Made by a program: the position numbers and the translations under genes. From IMG/VR virus record IMGVR_UViG_2703718774_000026: 37,928 nt of DNA; one strand, given 5' to 3'. The notes under the pieces were generated by a model. It saw only the letters and a list, made by a program, of their open reading frames with translations. It was not told the origin of the DNA and made no database searches. The stretch comes from a virus (taxonomy: Duplodnaviria; Heunggongvirae; Uroviricota; Caudoviricetes). Below, one piece after another: positions 1 to 37,228 of the stretch; the first letter of the stretch is position 1, and each line of letters opens with the position of its first letter.

Positions 1-1002
1 TTACCCTCTATTGTCAAAAGGGTTCAATTCAACAGCAGCCTCTAAATGACCTGGAGCAAAATGCGCATAACGCATAGTCATTTTTATATCGCTATGCCCC
101 AGTATTTTTTGCAACACAAGAATATTTCCGCCCCGCATCATAAAATGACTGGCAAACGTGTGACGTAGCACATGAGTTAATTGCCCATCAGGAAGCTCGA
201 TCTTCGCTCTCTTAATTGCAGCGTCAAAAGCCTCATAACATGGTGAAAATAGCGCTCCTCGTTTTTGAGGAAGCATAGCCTGCAATTGAGGTGAAATCGG
301 TACAGTGCGGTTCTTCTTTCCTTTAGTTTTAACAAATGTGATTCGACCGGGCAGTACTTGAGATTGCTTTAATCCTTCAGCTTCACTCCACCGAGCACCA
401 GTCGCAAGCCCAATACGGACAACAACCCCCAAATCTTTATTCCGTGACTCATCACACGCAATCAGAAGGCGTTCAATCTCATCTACATACAGAAACGCCA
501 GTTCCTTTTCTTCCTCACGAAACTTGCGAATACCAGTCAGGGGGTTTTCACCAGACCACTCCCCAAGGCGCTTCAGTTCGGCAAAAACAGCATGTAGATA
601 TGACTGCTCGCGATTAACGGTTGCTTCACTAAGTTTTTTCTTCCCCTTGGGATTCCATTCTCCTGATAGCCTTCTTTCCCGATAAGTAGCAAACATATTT
701 TTGTCAAACTGAGAAGCAAATGGATCCCCCAGCCTGGAACAAATCGCCTCAAGTTTGACTTTGCGCTCTGCACCAGAGGACAAGGTTTTACCGTACATCT
801 CAAACCAACGAGCAATCAACTCAGAAAGACGAGGACCAGAACCATCTTGAAACTCGTCTCCAACTCTACTATTCATTAAACGGCGCTCATAAGAGAGCGC
901 CTCACTTTTTGTCGCAAACTGTTTACGAATGCGTTTTCCCGATGCCCCGTAGGGATAACATTCGCAAAGCCATTTACCTGATGGAATCTTACGAACCGAC
1001 AT
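1..1002 (-). CDS. int: Phage integrase, tyrosine recombinase (P2 Int-like), 333 aa
   Basis: Full ORF with stop at nt 1-3. C-terminal catalytic region HTFASHFMMRGGNILVLQKILGHSDIKMTMRYAHF fits the tyrosine recombinase R..H..R..Y signature. Lies downstream of the repressor, as in P2. Confidence 0.9.
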   Translation of the reverse strand: MSVRKIPSGKWLCECYPYGASGKRIRKQFATKSEALSYERRLMNSRVGDEFQDGSGPRLSELIARWFEMYGKTLSSGAERKVKLEAICSRLGDPFASQFDKNMFATYRERRLSGEWNPKGKKKLSEATVNREQSYLHAVFAELKRLGEWSGENPLTGIRKFREEEKELAFLYVDEIERLLIACDESRNKDLGVVVRIGLATGARWSEAEGLKQSQVLPGRITFVKTKGKKNRTVPISPQLQAMLPQKRGALFSPCYEAFDAAIKRAKIELPDGQLTHVLRHTFASHFMMRGGNILVLQKILGHSDIKMTMRYAHFAPGHLEAAVELNPFDNRG

Positions 1003-1007
1003 TTTAG

Positions 1008-1355
1008 TTACTTATCACATAAATCAAATGCAGCCTTAGTGACATCCCCCAGACTCTTTTTTAACCCTGGGGCGGCATCATTATCTAGCCAAAATGGATT
1101 ATTGTTATCTAACGGTAACGCACCAAATGTTTTACCTTTTATTCGAGCTAAACCTGTAAGCGCATATAACTTATTATCGTCAAAATTCATCACATAAGGA
1201 TTACCATCAAGACACTGTAATTGAACCTCATCAGTATTAAATGGCCATACCCCATTGAAACTCTCACGTTCAATAGTTTTAAAAGGCATTGCGACGGCGG
1301 AAAAAGAAAACATAGATAAAAAAGTAACTAATAGTTGAACCTTTTTTACTTTCAT
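1008..1355 (-). CDS. Small secreted protein, 115 aa, co-oriented with repressor and int
   Basis: N-terminal signal-peptide-like segment MKVKKVQLLVTFLSMFSFSAVA; two Cys (mature region and near C-terminus); AT-rich codon usage unlike the phage backbone. No family assigned with confidence. Confidence 0.6.
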   Translation of the reverse strand: MKVKKVQLLVTFLSMFSFSAVAMPFKTIERESFNGVWPFNTDEVQLQCLDGNPYVMNFDDNKLYALTGLARIKGKTFGALPLDNNNPFWLDNDAAPGLKKSLGDVTKAAFDLCDK

Positions 1356-1384
1356 ATCATTACCTCAATTTAGCTCAAGTAAGA

Positions 1385-2035
1385 TTACAAATTAAAAAAC
1401 ACCCTAGAAATGGCACCGCCTACCAAAACCCCTACGCAGATAAAGAATATTATTTCTTTTGGATAAAGTCGGATTAATTCTGAAGCACGAAGTCGAACTT
1501 CTGGTAAGGCCGAACTCTCTGTGTGACTTGATGCCGATTGTTGCTCTAACCACGACAATGCAGACTGTAACTGAGAACGAGTAAGATCGTTTAAACGTCC
1601 TGTACCGAAATTGATATGGCAATACCGCAGAAGTTTTTGTCGAAGTCCACAGTCTTCACTGTTACGTAGTAATAAACTTACAAGAGTCTTACAGGCATCA
1701 TGATCTTTACATCGCTCAAGCATTGCATGCAGAAAACTCTCCGCTGTTTTATATTGATTTACTGTCATATCATCAATACCAGCTACACCAATCTCCGCAT
1801 GTACTTTTTGCCAAATAATAAACGCTTCAGTATTGCTAGCTTCTGCAATAGCAGCAACCAAGCTATTTAGCTCCTTACGCTGAGCCTTAAGCAAAGGGCG
1901 ATCGTCATCATCATTATTCGAAGGGATTGCGATATTGACGGTATGAGAACCATCATATCGCTCTATCTGAATATTCTTTTCGTGAAAATCACGCCCAGCA
2001 ACGCGATTGTTTGAACCGTTTGAGTTGACGGCCAT
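1385..2035 (-). CDS. Hypothetical protein, 216 aa, with C-terminal transmembrane anchor
   Basis: C-terminal hydrophobic stretch IIFFICVGVLVGGAISRVFF; N-terminus carries NNRVAGRDF, which echoes the repressor C-terminus NNRIAGRDY; RBS GGAGG upstream; AT-rich. Confidence 0.6.
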   Translation of the reverse strand: MAVNSNGSNNRVAGRDFHEKNIQIERYDGSHTVNIAIPSNNDDDDRPLLKAQRKELNSLVAAIAEASNTEAFIIWQKVHAEIGVAGIDDMTVNQYKTAESFLHAMLERCKDHDACKTLVSLLLRNSEDCGLRQKLLRYCHINFGTGRLNDLTRSQLQSALSWLEQQSASSHTESSALPEVRLRASELIRLYPKEIIFFICVGVLVGGAISRVFFNL

Positions 2036-2050
2036 GTCACCTCCCTACTA

Positions 2051-2455
2051 TCACCTACCCTTAGTTTCGTTATAGTCACGACCAGCGATACGGTTATTAC
2101 CACCAGAAATATTTAACTCACGTCCTGATGGCTGAGTTTCCTTTTCACTGATCGCACCTTTTAAAGCCCCGATCACCGCGTTTTTCACATCTAACGAAGC
2201 TGCTCGAAAGCGAGTAATCAACTCCTGCTCATCATCGTTATAAGTTTCAGGTGAGTGAATTCCCAACACAACATACTGAACATCAAGGCCAAAACGAGAC
2301 AGCGCTGCCAAATACGCAGCATCAGGAAAGCTATCTCCTTTCTCATATCTAAGCTGAGTTAGCTTTTTGACTCCACCAATGTCGCTCATGGCAACTTGAC
2401 TAAGTCCCAATCTTTCCCTTTCCTCACGCAACCGCTGACCAATATCATTTTTCAT
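2051..2455 (-). CDS. XRE-family HTH repressor (P2 C / 186 CI position), 134 aa
   Basis: N-terminal HTH QRLREERERLGLSQVAMSDIGGVKKLTQLRYEKG typical of XRE/Cro-CI regulators; divergent from the early operon; first gene of an operon ending in int. Confidence 0.8.
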   Translation of the reverse strand: MKNDIGQRLREERERLGLSQVAMSDIGGVKKLTQLRYEKGDSFPDAAYLAALSRFGLDVQYVVLGIHSPETYNDDEQELITRFRAASLDVKNAVIGALKGAISEKETQPSGRELNISGGNNRIAGRDYNETKGR

Positions 2456-2464
2456 ACAAAAACC

Positions 2465-2493
2465 TTGACAGGTATCTTTTTTGATACCAAAAT
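2465..2493 (+). promoter_or_regulatory. Candidate early promoter with overlapping operator palindrome
   Basis: TTGACA at 2465-2470, 17-bp spacer, CAAAAT at 2488-2493; perfect inverted repeat GGTATC-N6-GATACC at 2471-2488 inside the spacer, between the divergent repressor and early genes. Confidence 0.35.
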
Positions 2494-2530
2494 GATTTCA
2501 CGAGCTATTAGATGATCACAATATACCACT

Positions 2531-2737
2531 ATGAAACAAGTTCTTCACGATACCAGATCACGCATTCCGCGTAACACCGCCACAGGTCCAAGACTGGCAC
2601 TTCGGCTGTCCCTCGAGGAGCGAGCCGTCATTGATGAAATGGCAGCTAAAGAACAACGCTCATCCTCTAACATGGCGCGCATGATCTTCCTTCGCGGCCT
2701 AGAGCTAACCCAGAAAGAACAAAACAAATCTTCCTGA
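2531..2737 (+). CDS. Putative ribbon-helix-helix regulator, 68 aa, first early gene
   Basis: Pattern PRLALRLSLEERAVIDEMAAKEQ...NMARMIFLRGLEL fits a beta-strand plus two helices (CopG/Arc-like RHH); assigned by position and pattern only. Confidence 0.5.
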   Translation: MKQVLHDTRSRIPRNTATGPRLALRLSLEERAVIDEMAAKEQRSSSNMARMIFLRGLELTQKEQNKSS

Positions 2738-2753
2738 TCAGGAGGCTAGTGGG

Positions 2754-2957
2754 ATGTCAGGTATAACCATCAATATCAATGTGAATGCCCCCTATGTATC
2801 CCTGCAGAAATATGCAGAGATAACAGGTATCCCTCTTAATACATGCAAAAAGATGTTGGCTGACGGTCGAATTATTATCCGCCCCAAACGCGCCAAAATG
2901 GAAAAGCCTGAAGTAAACCTTGTGGCGATGTTAAAAGACGCTTTGGCTAACAGCTAA
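2754..2957 (+). CDS. Cox/Apl-like small DNA-binding protein, 67 aa
   Basis: APYVSLQKYAEITGIPLNTCKKMLADGRIIIRP resembles the P2 Cox helix region (IPYQEFAKLIGKSTGAVRRMIDKGKLPVI, recalled from memory); RBS GGAGG precedes the ATG. Confidence 0.5.
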   Translation: MSGITININVNAPYVSLQKYAEITGIPLNTCKKMLADGRIIIRPKRAKMEKPEVNLVAMLKDALANS

Positions 2958-2978
2958 AACAATGAACAGAGCATCATC

Positions 2979-3329
2979 ATGAAAAAAAACACTAATAATC
3001 CATACTCCAAATTTCGTAATGGCGTAGAACGCCATGTACACCACGTCGCTACCAGTGCATCACGTAGTAACAGCCGCTATAACCTGAACGAGACGCACGC
3101 AACACCAGATGGGCACGCTGTAAAACAAATCGGCGAACACACCTGGCTGATTGAGAAAGCTGGAATCGTGGTTCACAGATGCCCACACAATCCGTTTACC
3201 GGAAACCGCATTTTTGCATTAAGCAGCGGCGATAATCAGTTCGGGCAGGATTTCACATTGTACGAAGCACTACGCACAGTCGATCGTCTGCTTCGCGGGC
3301 AAAGTTTTATTAAACAGGCTGCTTTATAA
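2979..3329 (+). CDS. Hypothetical early protein, 116 aa
   Basis: Intact ORF in the tightly packed early operon; no recognisable motif. Confidence 0.5.
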   Translation: MKKNTNNPYSKFRNGVERHVHHVATSASRSNSRYNLNETHATPDGHAVKQIGEHTWLIEKAGIVVHRCPHNPFTGNRIFALSSGDNQFGQDFTLYEALRTVDRLLRGQSFIKQAAL

Positions 3330-7898: not shown

Positions 7899-8858
7899 AT
7901 GAAAATTTGTATCGACGACGGCTCCACCAACATCAAGCTGGCATGGACTGAGAACGGCGAACGCCGCAACGCCATCAGCCCGAACAGCTTCAAGTCGGAA
8001 TGGTCTGCGCCGTTCGGTGGCACGCAGCCCGCGAACTACATGCTTGATGGCGTGCGCTATGGTTTTGATCCGGTCAGCGATCGCTTTGTCCAGACGACCG
8101 ACACGCAATACCAGTACAGCGATGTGAATATAATTGCCATTCATCACGCGCTGGTCAAATCAGGCATCACACCACAGGAAGTGGATGTGGTTGTCACCCT
8201 GCCACTGAGCGAGTATTTCGATACAAACGCACAGCCGGACATGGCCAACATCAACCGCAAAAAAGCGAACGTCATGCGCCCGGTGGAGTACCAGAACGGC
8301 GAAGCATTCACTATCCGTAACGTACGGGTTATGCCTGAATCCATTCCGGCTGGCTTTAAGGCACTGGCTGACATGAGTCCGTTTGAATCCCTGCTGATTG
8401 TGGATTTGGGCGGAACCACTCTGGATGTGGCAAAGGTTCAGGGGCAACTGGCAGGTATCAGCCAGGTGTTTTGCGATCCACACGTGGGCGTTTCTCTGAT
8501 GGCCGATGCCGTACTGTCGGTGATGGCCACTAACGGTATGCGCACCAGTCACCACATCGCCAATACCATTATCGAACATCGCCATGATGAAGCCTGGCTG
8601 CGCCAGCACATCCACAATGACGCGCATTACGCCAGCCTGATGGCGGTTATTCGTGAAAAGGAAGAAACACTGAAACAACGCGTGATCCGCGCGCTGGCGG
8701 GTTTTTCGGGTTACGGGCGGGTGATGGTTGTCGGTGGAGGGGCGGAGATTGTGGCACCCGCTATCCGCGAAGCCTGCGGAGTTAATGCGACTTTCATCGC
8801 GGACGGGGTGCCACAGTTTGCTCTGGTTAATGGGCTGTACGCAATGGACAAGGAGTAA
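7899..8858 (+). CDS. parM: ParM/StbA-family actin-like ATPase, 319 aa
   Basis: N-terminus MKICIDDGSTNIKLAW..ISPNSFK.EW and blocks YSDVNI.A.HHAL, VMPESIPAG, DLGGTT.D, GVSL, VGGGAE align with plasmid R1 ParM as recalled from memory. Confidence 0.85.
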   Translation: MKICIDDGSTNIKLAWTENGERRNAISPNSFKSEWSAPFGGTQPANYMLDGVRYGFDPVSDRFVQTTDTQYQYSDVNIIAIHHALVKSGITPQEVDVVVTLPLSEYFDTNAQPDMANINRKKANVMRPVEYQNGEAFTIRNVRVMPESIPAGFKALADMSPFESLLIVDLGGTTLDVAKVQGQLAGISQVFCDPHVGVSLMADAVLSVMATNGMRTSHHIANTIIEHRHDEAWLRQHIHNDAHYASLMAVIREKEETLKQRVIRALAGFSGYGRVMVVGGGAEIVAPAIREACGVNATFIADGVPQFALVNGLYAMDKE

Positions 8859-8862
8859 ACCA

Positions 8863-9174
8863 ATGACGACTCCAACCAGACGGATAAGTTTCTATCTGAA
8901 GCCCACCGCCGTCAAGAACGAAGGAGAAGCATGCGCCTGGCTGGACAGCCTTACACCAGAAGCCCGCAAAAGCGGCCAACGCGTGGCTTTTCTGGCCGGG
9001 CTGGCACTTCTGAAAATGAATCCGGCAGAGGCTTATCGACTGGCTGCATGGGCTGGTGATGAAGCGTTATCAGTGACACAAACCAGGACAGAACGCCCCG
9101 CATCACAGCCAGTATCAACCGCACAGATAACCAGTCAGATGGCCGGAAATATCCGGGCGTTATTTCCTGAATAA
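8863..9174 (+). CDS. ParR/StbB-like small adaptor protein, 103 aa
   Basis: Starts 5 nt after the parM stop; N-terminus TRRISFYLKP...LDSLTPEARKSGQRVAFLAGLAL resembles the R1 ParR RHH region as recalled from memory. Confidence 0.6.
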   Translation: MTTPTRRISFYLKPTAVKNEGEACAWLDSLTPEARKSGQRVAFLAGLALLKMNPAEAYRLAAWAGDEALSVTQTRTERPASQPVSTAQITSQMAGNIRALFPE

Positions 9175-25937: not shown

Positions 25938-26510
25938 CTATTTATACAATACAACACCGCTCTTTTTAGTTATATATGTGCAGTTCGATGGTATATCTTT
26001 ATTTATAAAAGACATTGCACCTATTTTTACATTATCCCCAATTTTACGTGATAATCCAATGATGCAACAATTAGCTCCGATATCAACGTTACTACCAATT
26101 TTTACTCTTGAACCAGGCATGTCACCATCTATCTGTCCAATGGTAGTATTCTGTCGTAACACCAGATTTTCACCAGCATCAACAGCAAAATGAACAACAA
26201 TTCCAGCATGATGGGGAATTGTTAACCCTTTTCCAATATTTGCGCCCAATCCAATTTCACAACCAAATTTGTTAATTATTTTACTGTTTAACTTTTTGGC
26301 TGCTTTCTTATGTAATTTATTACCATTAATATACATTTCGTTAGCCAACCGCCACCAGAAAAGGAAATTCCGGTTACGCTGTTTTTTCTCTCTTAAAAGC
26401 CTCCAGATATCCATACGTTTCCGCCGAATTACTTCATATTTCCAGAAGTTTTTTAAATTAGTAGAGTCCCCAAATAAAACAAAGTGAATTGCCATTAAGT
26501 AAGACAGCAC
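25938..26510 (-). CDS. Hexapeptide-repeat (left-handed beta-helix) acetyltransferase, about 190 aa
   Basis: Imperfect hexad repeats GCEIGLGANIGKGLTIPHHAGIVV...GQIDGDMPGSRVKIGSNVDIGANCCIIGLSRKIGDNVKIGA; GTG start after AAGGAG preferred over the ATG at 26543; very AT-rich; sits at the P2 Z/fun cargo position. Confidence 0.75.
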   Translation of the reverse strand: MLSYLMAIHFVLFGDSTNLKNFWKYEVIRRKRMDIWRLLREKKQRNRNFLFWWRLANEMYINGNKLHKKAAKKLNSKIINKFGCEIGLGANIGKGLTIPHHAGIVVHFAVDAGENLVLRQNTTIGQIDGDMPGSRVKIGSNVDIGANCCIIGLSRKIGDNVKIGAMSFINKDIPSNCTYITKKSGVVLYK

Positions 26511-26666
26511 GATAATCTCCTTAATTATTATTTCAGACCACACATATTATAAGGTTAAGAGATTATAAAATCCTGTTGTTTGTTATTCAAAAACAATTTT
26601 CTGAGAAGGACATACAACAGCAAGTCGCCAGTCACCTTCATCAGGAAATTGGCGACATACGTTAAA

Positions 26667-33899: not shown

Positions 33900-35039
33900 G
33901 TGGGAAACAATAAAGTGAAATTAGGAAGAAATGATAAGTGCTGGTGTAATTCAGGACTTAAGTATAAAAAGTGCCATCTTGGTCGAGATCGTGAAACTCC
34001 GGTATCCAAAGCCGAGGCACTGAAATTTTCAAAGTCTCTCTCGCAGAGAAAGGCATGTTATGCGCCAGCATCCATGCACGAAGATTGTGATAAACGCATC
34101 GTTCAGGCGCATACGATATCTAAGAGCAGTAGCCTTAAGGCGATCGCCGACTCCAGCAATCACGTCATGGGGGTGATAATGAACTTAGCAAGCCTGATGA
34201 GAAACAACGGAAAATGGCTTCCCGAGAAGATCGGTATCAATCAGGCATCCACTTTTACAGGATTTTGTGCAGTTCATGACAGAATCTTATTTTCATGCCT
34301 AGAGAACGAAAAATTTACAGGCACGGACGAGCAGTGCTTTGCCTTAATGTTTCGTTCATTGTCTAAAGAAATTTATGCCAAAGAAGGGGGAGTGCTATCT
34401 TCTGATTTTGCTAAAAATGCCGATAAAGGAAAGCTACAAGTTGAACAGTATTATATTCAGAAATTAATCGACCAGCACCAAAGTGGCTTAAATGCAGCAA
34501 TAATTGAATTAAATAATCTTAAAACTAGCCTCGACCGCATCCTACTTAGCAGGCAATTTTCAGAAATTGAAAGTGTTATCTTCACTTTTGCAGAGCCTTT
34601 ACCAATTGTAGTTTCGTCAATTCTTTCACCGGAGAGGGATTTCGATGGGACCAAAATTCAGGATTTGAGCGATCTTACAGTGTCGGCGGAACAAGTATGT
34701 TTCAATGCTTTTTCCTGCGGAGGTAAGGGATATGTAGTGTTCAGTTGGCTGAGAACTTCAACAATTATCAGACGTTTTATACGGACACTAATTAAGATCC
34801 CAGCTAACAGGATGTTCAATACCCTTCTGTATTTTTTCTTCACAAAGGCCGAAAATACATATTCATCCCCTGAGTGGTGGGACAGGCTCAGTGATAAACA
34901 GCGAGAGAATATCGGCAACATGATTATGTCAGGGGTTGAATTTTTTGGCAGACCTACATCACAGGTTGATCATTCCGTTGATTATAACGCCGCTGCACTT
35001 GAAGAGATAACATGCAGCAACAACGAAATTTGCAGCTGA
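33900..35039 (+). CDS. SEC-C-motif protein of unknown function, 379 aa
   Basis: N-terminal CWCNSGLKYKKCH is a SecA C-terminal-type zinc motif; rest unrecognised; GTG start; AT-rich; inserted between D and ogr. Confidence 0.6.
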   Translation: MGNNKVKLGRNDKCWCNSGLKYKKCHLGRDRETPVSKAEALKFSKSLSQRKACYAPASMHEDCDKRIVQAHTISKSSSLKAIADSSNHVMGVIMNLASLMRNNGKWLPEKIGINQASTFTGFCAVHDRILFSCLENEKFTGTDEQCFALMFRSLSKEIYAKEGGVLSSDFAKNADKGKLQVEQYYIQKLIDQHQSGLNAAIIELNNLKTSLDRILLSRQFSEIESVIFTFAEPLPIVVSSILSPERDFDGTKIQDLSDLTVSAEQVCFNAFSCGGKGYVVFSWLRTSTIIRRFIRTLIKIPANRMFNTLLYFFFTKAENTYSSPEWWDRLSDKQRENIGNMIMSGVEFFGRPTSQVDHSVDYNAAALEEITCSNNEICS

Positions 35040-36005: not shown

Positions 36006-36037
36006 CCCGCAGCGTAAGAACTGCGGGTTTTCTTTTT
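36006..36037 (+). terminator. Rho-independent terminator downstream of the hok-like ORF
   Basis: Stem CCCGCAG/CTGCGGG with an 8-nt loop, followed by TTTTCTTTTT. Confidence 0.65.
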
Positions 36038-36105
36038 GGAACAATCACTAGCTAGTGTACCGTTAACGGCACATAATGCTCGCACAACAAACCTGTTAAA
36101 AGAGA

Positions 36106-36387
36106 TTACTCAGCATTCTCCTGCTTCCATTGCCGGATCATTTCATCGGTAACATCACCCTCATAACATACCACGTCATACCCTCCATTACGGCTATATG
36201 CACTGCGTCCACCACATCTACTACCATTCCTTGCATGATTATAAGGACACGCACAATTGCCTGGATAAGATTCAATGGATTCTTTAATTATTTCTTTTTT
36301 GATCTGAGCATCAGACTTTCCTGTTGCTGCATATCCACTAAAAGATACTAAACAAAGGCAGATTGCCATTAATAAACCACATCGCAT
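36106..36387 (-). CDS. Small Cys-rich secreted protein, about 93 aa
   Basis: Internal start giving signal-peptide-like MRCGLLMAICLCLVSFSGYAA; mature part has five Cys (GNCACPYNH...RCGG...VVCYEG); AT-rich; the start choice is uncertain. Confidence 0.45.
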   Translation of the reverse strand: MRCGLLMAICLCLVSFSGYAATGKSDAQIKKEIIKESIESYPGNCACPYNHARNGSRCGGRSAYSRNGGYDVVCYEGDVTDEMIRQWKQENAE

Positions 36388-36925: not shown

Positions 36926-37012
36926 TGGTACCCGGAGCGGGACTTGAACCCGCACAGCGCGAACGCCGAGGGATTTTAAATCCCTTGTGTCTACCGATTC
37001 CACCATCCGGGC
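36926..37012 (-). tRNA. leuZ: tRNA-Leu (anticodon UAA)
   Basis: Reverse complement reads GCCCGGATGGTGGAATCGGTAGACACAAGGGATTTAAAATCCC...GGGTTCAAGTCCCGCTCCGGGTACCA, with D-loop, anticodon loop, long variable arm and T-loop GGTTCAAGTCC. Confidence 0.9.
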
Positions 37013-37024
37013 TCGGGAAGAAAG

Positions 37025-37098
37025 TGGAGGCGCGTTCCGGAGTCGAACCGGACTAGACGGATTTGCAATCCGCTACATAACCGCTTTGTTAACGCGCC
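37025..37098 (-). tRNA. cysT: tRNA-Cys (anticodon GCA)
   Basis: Reverse complement reads GGCGCGTTAACAAAGCGGTTATGTAGCGGATTGCAAATCCGTCTAGTCCGGTTCGACTCCGGAACGCGCCTCCA. Confidence 0.9.
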
Positions 37099-37152
37099 AA
37101 ATTCTTCAGGCCTTTCAGCCAGACATCCGCTTGACGCCGATGTCTTTTAAAC

Positions 37153-37228
<76 letters not shown>

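Follow-up and report, generated by a model that had tools for sequence, protein, structure and literature searches.

The DNA analyzed here, hereafter the window, is the whole 37,928-nucleotide (nt) stretch of IMG/VR record IMGVR_UViG_2703718774_000026, a P88-like prophage (Xuanwuvirus, Peduoviridae) of Escherichia coli O26:H11 strain 11368, with yecA on one side of the integration site and the leuZ-cysT-glyW/pgsA locus on the other. Our subject is the gene cluster at its left end, and in particular a 134-amino-acid (aa) repressor and the 216-aa membrane protein encoded directly downstream of it, here called the partner, which bear versions of one short peptide motif at the C-terminus of the former and the N-terminus of the latter. 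A preliminary description of the locus, made from the sequence alone, had placed two genes between the repressor and the integrase gene (int) on the repressor strand, and all four open reading frames (ORFs) indeed lie on the - strand at the positions it gave, in the order repressor, 216-aa protein, 115-aa protein and int, separated by 15, 29 and 5 nt; among the four, no terminator-like site was seen. The repressor gene is divergent from Arc-like and Cox-like early genes. The features of this region, with models from AlphaFold2 (AF2) and their predicted local distance difference test scores (pLDDT) where these were used, are the following:

2444-2530, no strand assigned: divergent control region between the repressor and the early (Arc-like, Cox-like) genes; consensus matches only
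2051-2455, - strand: repressor, 134-aa XRE protein; phrog_8 match and ORF call
2063-2116, - strand: C-terminal motif of the repressor, residues 114-131, LNISGGNNRIAGRDYNET, followed by the basic end KGR; local alignment and six-frame scan
1385-2035, - strand: partner protein, 216 aa; phrog_5825 and Flk_N
1976-2029, - strand: N-terminal motif of the partner, residues 3-20, VNSNGSNNRVAGRDFHEK; alignment, pLDDT below 50 (AF2)
1520-1900, - strand: Flk_N helical domain of the partner, residues 46-172; Flk_N profile
1391-1486, - strand: C-terminal transmembrane helix of the partner, residues 184-215; AF2 helices 184-190 and 192-215, hydrophobic window 187-205
1008-1355, - strand: DUF2511/YebY-like protein, 115 aa; Pfam DUF2511 and phrog_2950
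1-1002, - strand: integrase, last gene of the co-directional repressor cluster; Int_N and Phage_integrase matches, starting 5 nt past the DUF2511 gene

The 134-aa protein matches phrog_8 (E=2.5e-14) and, weakly and below the Pfam cut-offs, the helix-turn-helix (HTH) models HTH_31, HTH_19 and HTH_3, while the profile of its family recovers the N-terminal DNA-binding domain of P22 C2 (E=1.5e-5). It combines an XRE HTH domain with divergence from the early lytic operon and proximity to int, as do CI-type prophage repressors, and judged by these features it is a prophage repressor of the XRE/P22-C2-like HTH type. In the AF2 model a five-helix HTH domain (residues 1-64) and a helical hairpin (74-102) are followed by a low-confidence tail (103-134), where pLDDT is below 50 at residues 103-123 and 126-128; from residue 101 on, the block means lie at 45-49. 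Neither Pfam (Peptidase_S24) nor the AF2 model revealed an S24 peptidase domain, placing the protein outside the self-cleaving LexA/lambda-CI class, and a LexA box search of the window yielded nothing convincing, the one match being GC-rich, at chance level and inside gene A. The C-terminus reads LNISGGNNRIAGRDYNE, and the longer tail ...LNISGGNNRIAGRDYNETKGR. On consensus matches only, the control region has a sigma-70-like promoter, with TTGACA at 2465 and CAAAAT ending at 2493, and a candidate operator in the form of an imperfect inverted repeat whose 19-nt arms lie at 2444-2462 and 2478-2496.

The partner, whose N-terminus reads VNSNGSNNRVAGRDFHE (longer start MAVNSNGSNNRVAGRDFHEKNIQ), consists of the N-terminal motif, a conserved stretch of low model confidence up to residue 45, the Flk_N domain and a C-terminal transmembrane anchor. 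The anchor, already noted in the preliminary description, is borne out by the AF2 helix and the hydrophobic stretch within it, and on this model the partner is a tail-anchored protein with its N-terminus in the cytoplasm. It matches phrog_5825 (E=3.7e-102), nearly all of its listed homologues have precomputed matches to PF27202 (Flk_N), and the NCBIfam Flk model aligns to residues 37-166 (E=8.9e-16), all of which assign it to the Flk_N family. It is not Flk itself: against the Flk equivalog (PRK10715) it scores 58.1 bits, the cut-off being 353, and it has one domain, a length of 216 aa and a place in a prophage immunity region. By homology, then, it is a Flk_N-domain protein and not Flk. True Flk proteins (P0285, P0287, P0289 and P0325) are chromosomal and show two Flk_N repeats with a tail anchor but without the N-terminal motif; they may have been domesticated from the prophage partner family, or that family may derive from them. 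Pairing with a repressor would provide the first functional context for the Flk_N domain. Residues 49-107 additionally show weak matches to Ant-type PHROGs (E=0.004-0.03), and a sequence search of the PDB with the partner profile found nothing significant. Four positions of the motif, N10, R11, D16 and E19, do not vary among 28 family members drawn from many Enterobacterales.

The shared motif is real and longer than first described. The preliminary description had aligned nine residues, NNRIAGRDY in the repressor with NNRVAGRDF in the partner; the similarity extends over about 17 aligned residues, 10 of them identical, and the local alignment of the two termini scores 62 as against 20.1 +/- 4.3 for shuffled sequences (0/3000 reaching it; z = 9.8). 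The best score of the repressor tail against internal windows of the partner is 18, and a six-frame scan of the window found just these two copies and no third. Both fall in segments with pLDDT below 50 beside well-folded domains in AF2 monomer models. The statement that the likeness resides in the proteins and not in a DNA repeat also holds up: in the window pair 4 of the 10 identical residues use the same codon, with 4.1 expected. A fusion of repressor and partner by read-through or frameshifting was considered and rejected. The two genes are in the same frame in the window, but three consecutive stops separate them (TGA TAG TAG, then GGAGGT GAC; window 2036-2053, - strand), and neither spacing nor frame is conserved at other loci.

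The window allele of the repressor and 216-aa pair is found in 520 of 5,426 complete E. coli genomes, including O26, O103, O111, O121 and O157 pathogens (O157:H7). A scan of genome contigs for the Flk_N partner recovered 6 loci. In relatives from Rosenbergiella, Mixta, Izhakiella, Enterobacter soli and a Symbiopectobacterium symbiont, the partner gene begins 9-12 nt downstream of a homologous repressor whose tail has the form ..SNSINVSGxGNRxAGRDFNENKK, and the tail consensus of the P2-like subfamily is ..INVSGxGNRxAGRD[FY]xE..KK. Homologues of the repressor form subfamilies with other, distinct N/G/Q-rich tails, many of them in BcepMu/B3-type transposable prophages and not P2-like ones, and the repressor/partner arrangement recurs in P2-like and Mu-like (BcepMu, B3, KS10) prophages of gamma- and beta-proteobacteria. 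Across these we find at least 10 variants of the motif, each matched within its own pair. Named phages with a matched pair are B3 (ORF18/ORF20), BcepMu (gp17/gp18) and KS10 (gp13/gp12). Examples of matched termini are:

Pectobacterium: repressor tail IFNGDISGQFAGNQIIN; partner N-terminus EFNGTAQGQFSSRDIIN
Gilliamella (a): repressor tail GQVSAENIYNF; partner N-terminus DQVAANNIYNI
Gilliamella (b): repressor tail NTIRGEGQIAGGNIY; partner N-terminus NTAEQIAGRDIY
Pseudomonas: repressor tail QQFNGPVGTVTSGDVVN; partner N-terminus QQFHDRVHQVAAGDIKN
Locus L083: repressor tail VFHGAVSGGVAARDIIN; partner N-terminus EFQGNVDGGVAGRDIVN
Locus L106: repressor tail AGDNYYEKK; partner N-terminus AGRNYYEVK
Locus L108: repressor tail VVHGDVG; partner N-terminus IIHGDVG

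The matching was quantified over 26 non-redundant repressor/partner pairs, using 32-residue windows in the shuffle test and a 50-residue N-terminal window in a lineage-class test covering 17 lineages. The summed score of cognate pairs is 1176, whereas permuted pairings give 792 +/- 55 and none of 100,000 permutations attains the cognate value; individually, 22 of the 26 pairs reach z >= 2.8 against shuffles. In 15 of the 17 lineages the tail scores 33-72 with its own partner (the other two being L086 with 16 and L084 with 22), as against medians of 19-27 when it is compared with orthologous tails of other motif classes. One homologous repressor that lacks such a tail has no matching protein downstream. 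The functional link between immunity and the membrane protein that the preliminary description had suggested is thus supported, since the tail resembles the N-terminus of its own partner more than it does the orthologous tails of other lineages. Over all pairs, 96 of 230 identical residues share a codon, with 93.2 expected from local codon usage. Gene conversion or a DNA repeat was therefore rejected as the source of the likeness: with codon identity at expectation, it is not recent gene conversion that keeps the copies alike but selection on the proteins.

Linkage of the two genes is tight, ranging from overlapping starts to gaps of about 35 nt. At one locus, in a P2-like relative, an 88-aa gene (L108, 2095-2361) comes between the repressor and the Flk_N partner that matches it in motif, and strict adjacency is therefore not required. 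The body of the partner differs by lineage: besides the tail-anchored Flk_N type there are longer bitopic proteins of the BcepMu gp18 type, with a coiled coil and a periplasmic Cys-containing domain, and small proteins of about 120-195 aa with two transmembrane segments, one of which has a zinc ribbon and one a weak holin-like match. No Pfam domains were found in these alternative, non-Flk_N partners. What persists in nearly all of them is a predicted membrane anchor together with the cytoplasmic N-terminal motif. As a separate observation, the last ~60 residues of the bitopic partners (loci L083-L086, L093 and L103; BcepMu gp18) share a periplasmic pattern, C.F.G..Y..G..I......D..C, which has no Pfam family, and this segment may be a sensor domain.

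The second gene between repressor and int is unrelated to the first. Judged from its sequence without a predictor, the 115-aa protein has at its N-terminus a hydrophobic leader of the Sec type, MKVKKVQLLVTFLSMFSFSAVA, in agreement with the signal peptide of the preliminary description, and it belongs to DUF2511 (28.4 bits, Pfam cut-off 21), with further matches to phrog_2950 (E=8.7e-40) and the periplasmic YebY (7n0j; E=0.0027). The preliminary description had been able to assign neither it nor the 216-aa protein to a family; the profile and structure-prediction searches that had been proposed for both gave families for both and AF2 helices for the 216-aa protein. PADLOC defense-system models match neither, and the repressor has only weak HTH-level RmrA matches there. 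Besides the window, it is only Rosenbergiella that has the DUF2511 gene in the slot between partner and int; an unrelated gene of 244, 102 or 292 aa takes its place in Mixta, Izhakiella and Enterobacter soli (L003-L005). Since the contents of the slot differ between relatives, the supposed two-gene envelope cassette resolves into a conserved repressor partner and a variable cargo slot: of the three genes whose co-occurrence had been put forward for checking, the repressor and partner are conserved as a pair and the DUF2511 gene is replaced in relatives. The 115-aa gene is variable cargo and stands outside the motif pair. The AT-richness ascribed to both genes holds for one of them, the DUF2511 gene (~34-39% GC), and not to the 216-aa gene (40-43%), which is near the repressor (~44%). 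In the deposited phage genome closest to the window, Escherichia phage 520873 (NC_049344.1), neither gene is annotated at 2001-3043; the match to the 216-aa protein is there broken into three tblastn pieces and that to int into two, probably owing to sequencing frameshifts in the record.

Taking these sequence patterns together, we consider it somewhat probable that the repressor and its downstream partner constitute a conserved two-component immunity module, in which contact between the two motifs couples the repressor to a membrane protein that modulates repression. The motif has been re-invented lineage by lineage, it is matched within each pair and this holds regardless of the partner body, so that direct like-with-like contact is the simplest account; by the same token, a motif that persists on interchangeable bodies points to the motif itself as the contact. 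The two copies would most likely bind each other directly, probably pairing as beta strands, and a fraction of the repressor would thereby be held at, or controlled from, the inner membrane. The partner might then modulate the availability of the repressor by conditional sequestration, by inactivation, or by masking and so protecting its exposed C-terminal tail. As the repressor has no peptidase domain, the prophage would in this manner gain an input into the lysis-lysogeny decision that is independent of RecA-type self-cleavage. The absence of a self-cleavage domain from the repressor, together with that of a LexA-controlled antirepressor from the window, makes the module a candidate for the missing induction or maintenance input. 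Little has been established about how P2-like and transposable phages inactivate their non-cleavable XRE-type repressors, and the pair offers a concrete and testable candidate for a membrane-linked input that does not depend on the SOS response. We found no description of the repressor/partner motif pair in the literature searched, and the KS10 genome paper gives gp12 as 'no sig. match'. We view the module as previously unremarked, widespread and co-evolving, with a mechanism that is directly testable.

Several points weigh against the two-component module. Four of the 26 pairs (L062, L070, L084 and L086) are weakly similar in the 32-residue test, and in the 50-residue window, where L070 rises to a score of 51, L084 (22) and L086 (16) remain weak. 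Within the NRxAGRD class, the position-wise co-variation of the variable core is modest (p ~0.02, uncorrected for phylogeny). The lineages are not fully independent, owing to co-inheritance, and the look of co-evolution could also arise from episodic ancient gene conversion if each copy then came under purifying selection. A reading of the KS10 gp12 sequence revealed no obvious transmembrane segment. Finally, there is no obvious benefit in co-transcribing a repressor with its own inactivator, unless the partner acts conditionally or in fact supports repression.

The alternative that fares best, in our estimate an unlikely one, is a switch akin to amyloid signaling, in which the shared peptide is a templating motif of cross-beta or beta-solenoid type and an activated or clustered partner converts the repressor tails to the same fold, drawing the repressor into an inactive assembly and flipping the prophage irreversibly to lytic growth. 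A motif at one C-terminus and at the N-terminus of the adjacent gene product is the very signature by which amyloid signaling motifs have been found, and a working example exists in a prophage-borne defense island of E. coli. In composition the motif core has an excess of N (3.8x) and G (2.4x) and a deficit of L (0.12x), P (0.26x) and K (0.45x), resembling the bias of bacterial amyloid signal sequences (BASS; Q, N, G, V and I up, K, P and L down), but Q (0.86x) and I (0.91x) are not enriched, the core has ~18 residues where BASS have ~25, and charged residues (R, R, D, E) abound in the P2-type motif. The spacing of the glycines would suit strand breakers, both motifs are modeled with low confidence as monomers, and some partners (P0282, BcepMu gp18) contain two or three tandem copies. 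Against this, neither the repressor nor the partner belongs to the NLR/STAND sensors or the Bell/HeLo-type pore formers, with no match to NACHT, NB-ARC or Bell, and the pair departs from the class in its components. Somewhat more doubtful still is the wider proposition that the repressors of P2-like and BcepMu/B3-like phages are under prion-like templating, the partner motif being nucleated by an envelope or periplasmic signal and turning the repressor tail cross-beta. If true, this would be the first case in which amyloid signaling governs a transcription factor and a decision in the life cycle of a virus, and Flk would be a domesticated relative of the sensor.

Recognition of both termini by a common third party, be it a protease, an adaptor or a chaperone (for instance as a degron for ClpXP, Lon or FtsH), would lead to co-regulated or competing degradation. 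This is the 'shared interaction partner' of the preliminary description. Exposed termini of low model confidence are typical degrons; moreover, the C-terminus of the phage Mu repressor controls its sensitivity to ClpXP, and FtsH starts on the cytoplasmic tails of membrane proteins. A site read by a host protease should however be conserved, and not exist in at least 10 lineage variants each matched in its pair, when hosts from Escherichia to Burkholderia have the same proteases; nor was a third motif-bearing or obviously co-varying gene seen in the window. We hold such recognition to be improbable, and less likely than direct motif-to-motif contact, because the motif shifts by lineage and stays matched even with an unrelated partner body.

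We find it just as hard to credit that there is no cross-talk at all, the N-terminus of the partner being a relic of a partial duplication of the repressor 3' end, or a self-association element, and the 216-aa protein an exclusion or conversion factor that acts alone in the lysogen, along the lines of the preliminary description. The space between repressor and int is the classic position of morons, variable cargo is indeed present in the neighboring slot, and the partner, itself a membrane protein, is weakly related to phrog_6521, which carries the label moron/membrane protein. Relics, however, do not go on matching while the two copies diverge and their synonymous sites are saturated, and the four invariant positions of the partner motif likewise speak against decay. 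It is the pair, not the cargo, that is kept from P2-like to Mu-like phages, PADLOC is without a match, and none of the results favors a role of the 216-aa protein in superinfection exclusion or lysogenic conversion. A toxin-antitoxin-like pair, where the repressor tail neutralizes a harmful membrane protein and loss of the repressor both derepresses the phage and frees the membrane-active effector, is very improbable: XRE-HTH antitoxins upstream of toxins are common, the repressor weakly matches MqsA/HipB-type models, and all small partners are membrane proteins, one with the holin-like match, but the partners have no similarity to known toxin families, antitoxin-toxin pairs are not known with a shared homotypic terminal motif, and Flk_N relatives such as Flk are regulatory and not toxic.

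Elsewhere the window carries further cargo. A plasmid-type, actin-like ParM segregation gene (7899-9174, +; StbA_N E=1e-82, ParM_N E=1e-68) is followed by a gene named in RefSeq as a partitioning/stability protein, which is unusual cargo for an integrating prophage. An opposite-strand gene directly past the tail-fibre assembly gene (25938-26543, -) encodes hexapeptide repeats and is called a serine O-acetyltransferase in RefSeq; it may be a moron that modifies the O-antigen or the cell surface. A gene for a 379-aa protein with an N-terminal SEC-C motif (33900-35039, +; RefSeq 'YecA family protein') is located between late gene D and ogr, so that a YecA-family gene is carried by a prophage that itself adjoins the host yecA. 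At the right end, a Hok/Gef family toxin gene is annotated near 36020-36160 (+; NC_013361.1 2704430-2704570), preceding the leuZ-cysT-glyW tRNA cluster (tRNAs at 36926-37228).

The proposed module of repressor and membrane partner finds parallels in several known systems. In the lambda cI-rexA-rexB unit, genes co-transcribed with the repressor in the lysogen, one with an inner-membrane product, have a reported effect on exclusion and on the lysogeny-lysis transition; the repressor-linked co-transcription and the inner-membrane product are common to both cases, whereas there is no sequence relation and CI and Rex have no motif in common. Qtip of VP882, Tum of 186 and Ant of P22 are phage proteins that bind a non-cleavable repressor (Qtip aggregates it) and thereby induce the prophage independently of SOS. 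They target a repressor, as the partner would, but they are soluble, have regulated promoters of their own and are not known to mimic a repressor terminus. In RseA-sigmaE and Mlc-PtsG, the cytoplasm-facing domain of a membrane protein holds a transcription regulator. The logic of sequestration would be the same, and signals could be sensed by the periplasmic domains that some of the partners described here possess. Those families are unrelated to the present ones, and in them recognition does not proceed via a duplicated homotypic peptide. Flk shares with the partner the homologous Flk_N domain, the cytoplasmic orientation and the C-terminal membrane anchor. It differs in its length of at least 333 aa, its two Flk_N repeats, the lack of the N-terminal motif, its chromosomal location and its action on the flagellar export gate. 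As a tail-anchored, cytoplasm-facing inhibitor that acts on a partner at the membrane, it is nonetheless compatible in kind with what we propose for the prophage protein.

In its genetic organization the pair resembles the amyloid signaling pairs, such as Bab/Agp (BASS11) in E. coli, Bell/NLR (BASS1-10) and HET-s/NWD2. In these, too, a short N/G-rich and P/L/K-poor motif is placed at the C-terminus of one protein and the N-terminus of its neighbor, the two are co-expressed, the motif varies by lineage but matches within the pair and one of the partners is at the membrane; Bab/Agp is also prophage-borne. In the present pair the motif is borne at the C-terminus by a DNA-binding repressor instead of a pore-forming effector and at the N-terminus by a small membrane-anchored protein instead of an NLR or tetratricopeptide-repeat sensor, and it is shorter and more charged. 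Hence, we do not file the pair as a member of the amyloid-signaling class. Should the module function as proposed, the principle of a matching terminal motif in adjacent genes, so far one of cell death and defense, would reach into the control of a transcription factor.

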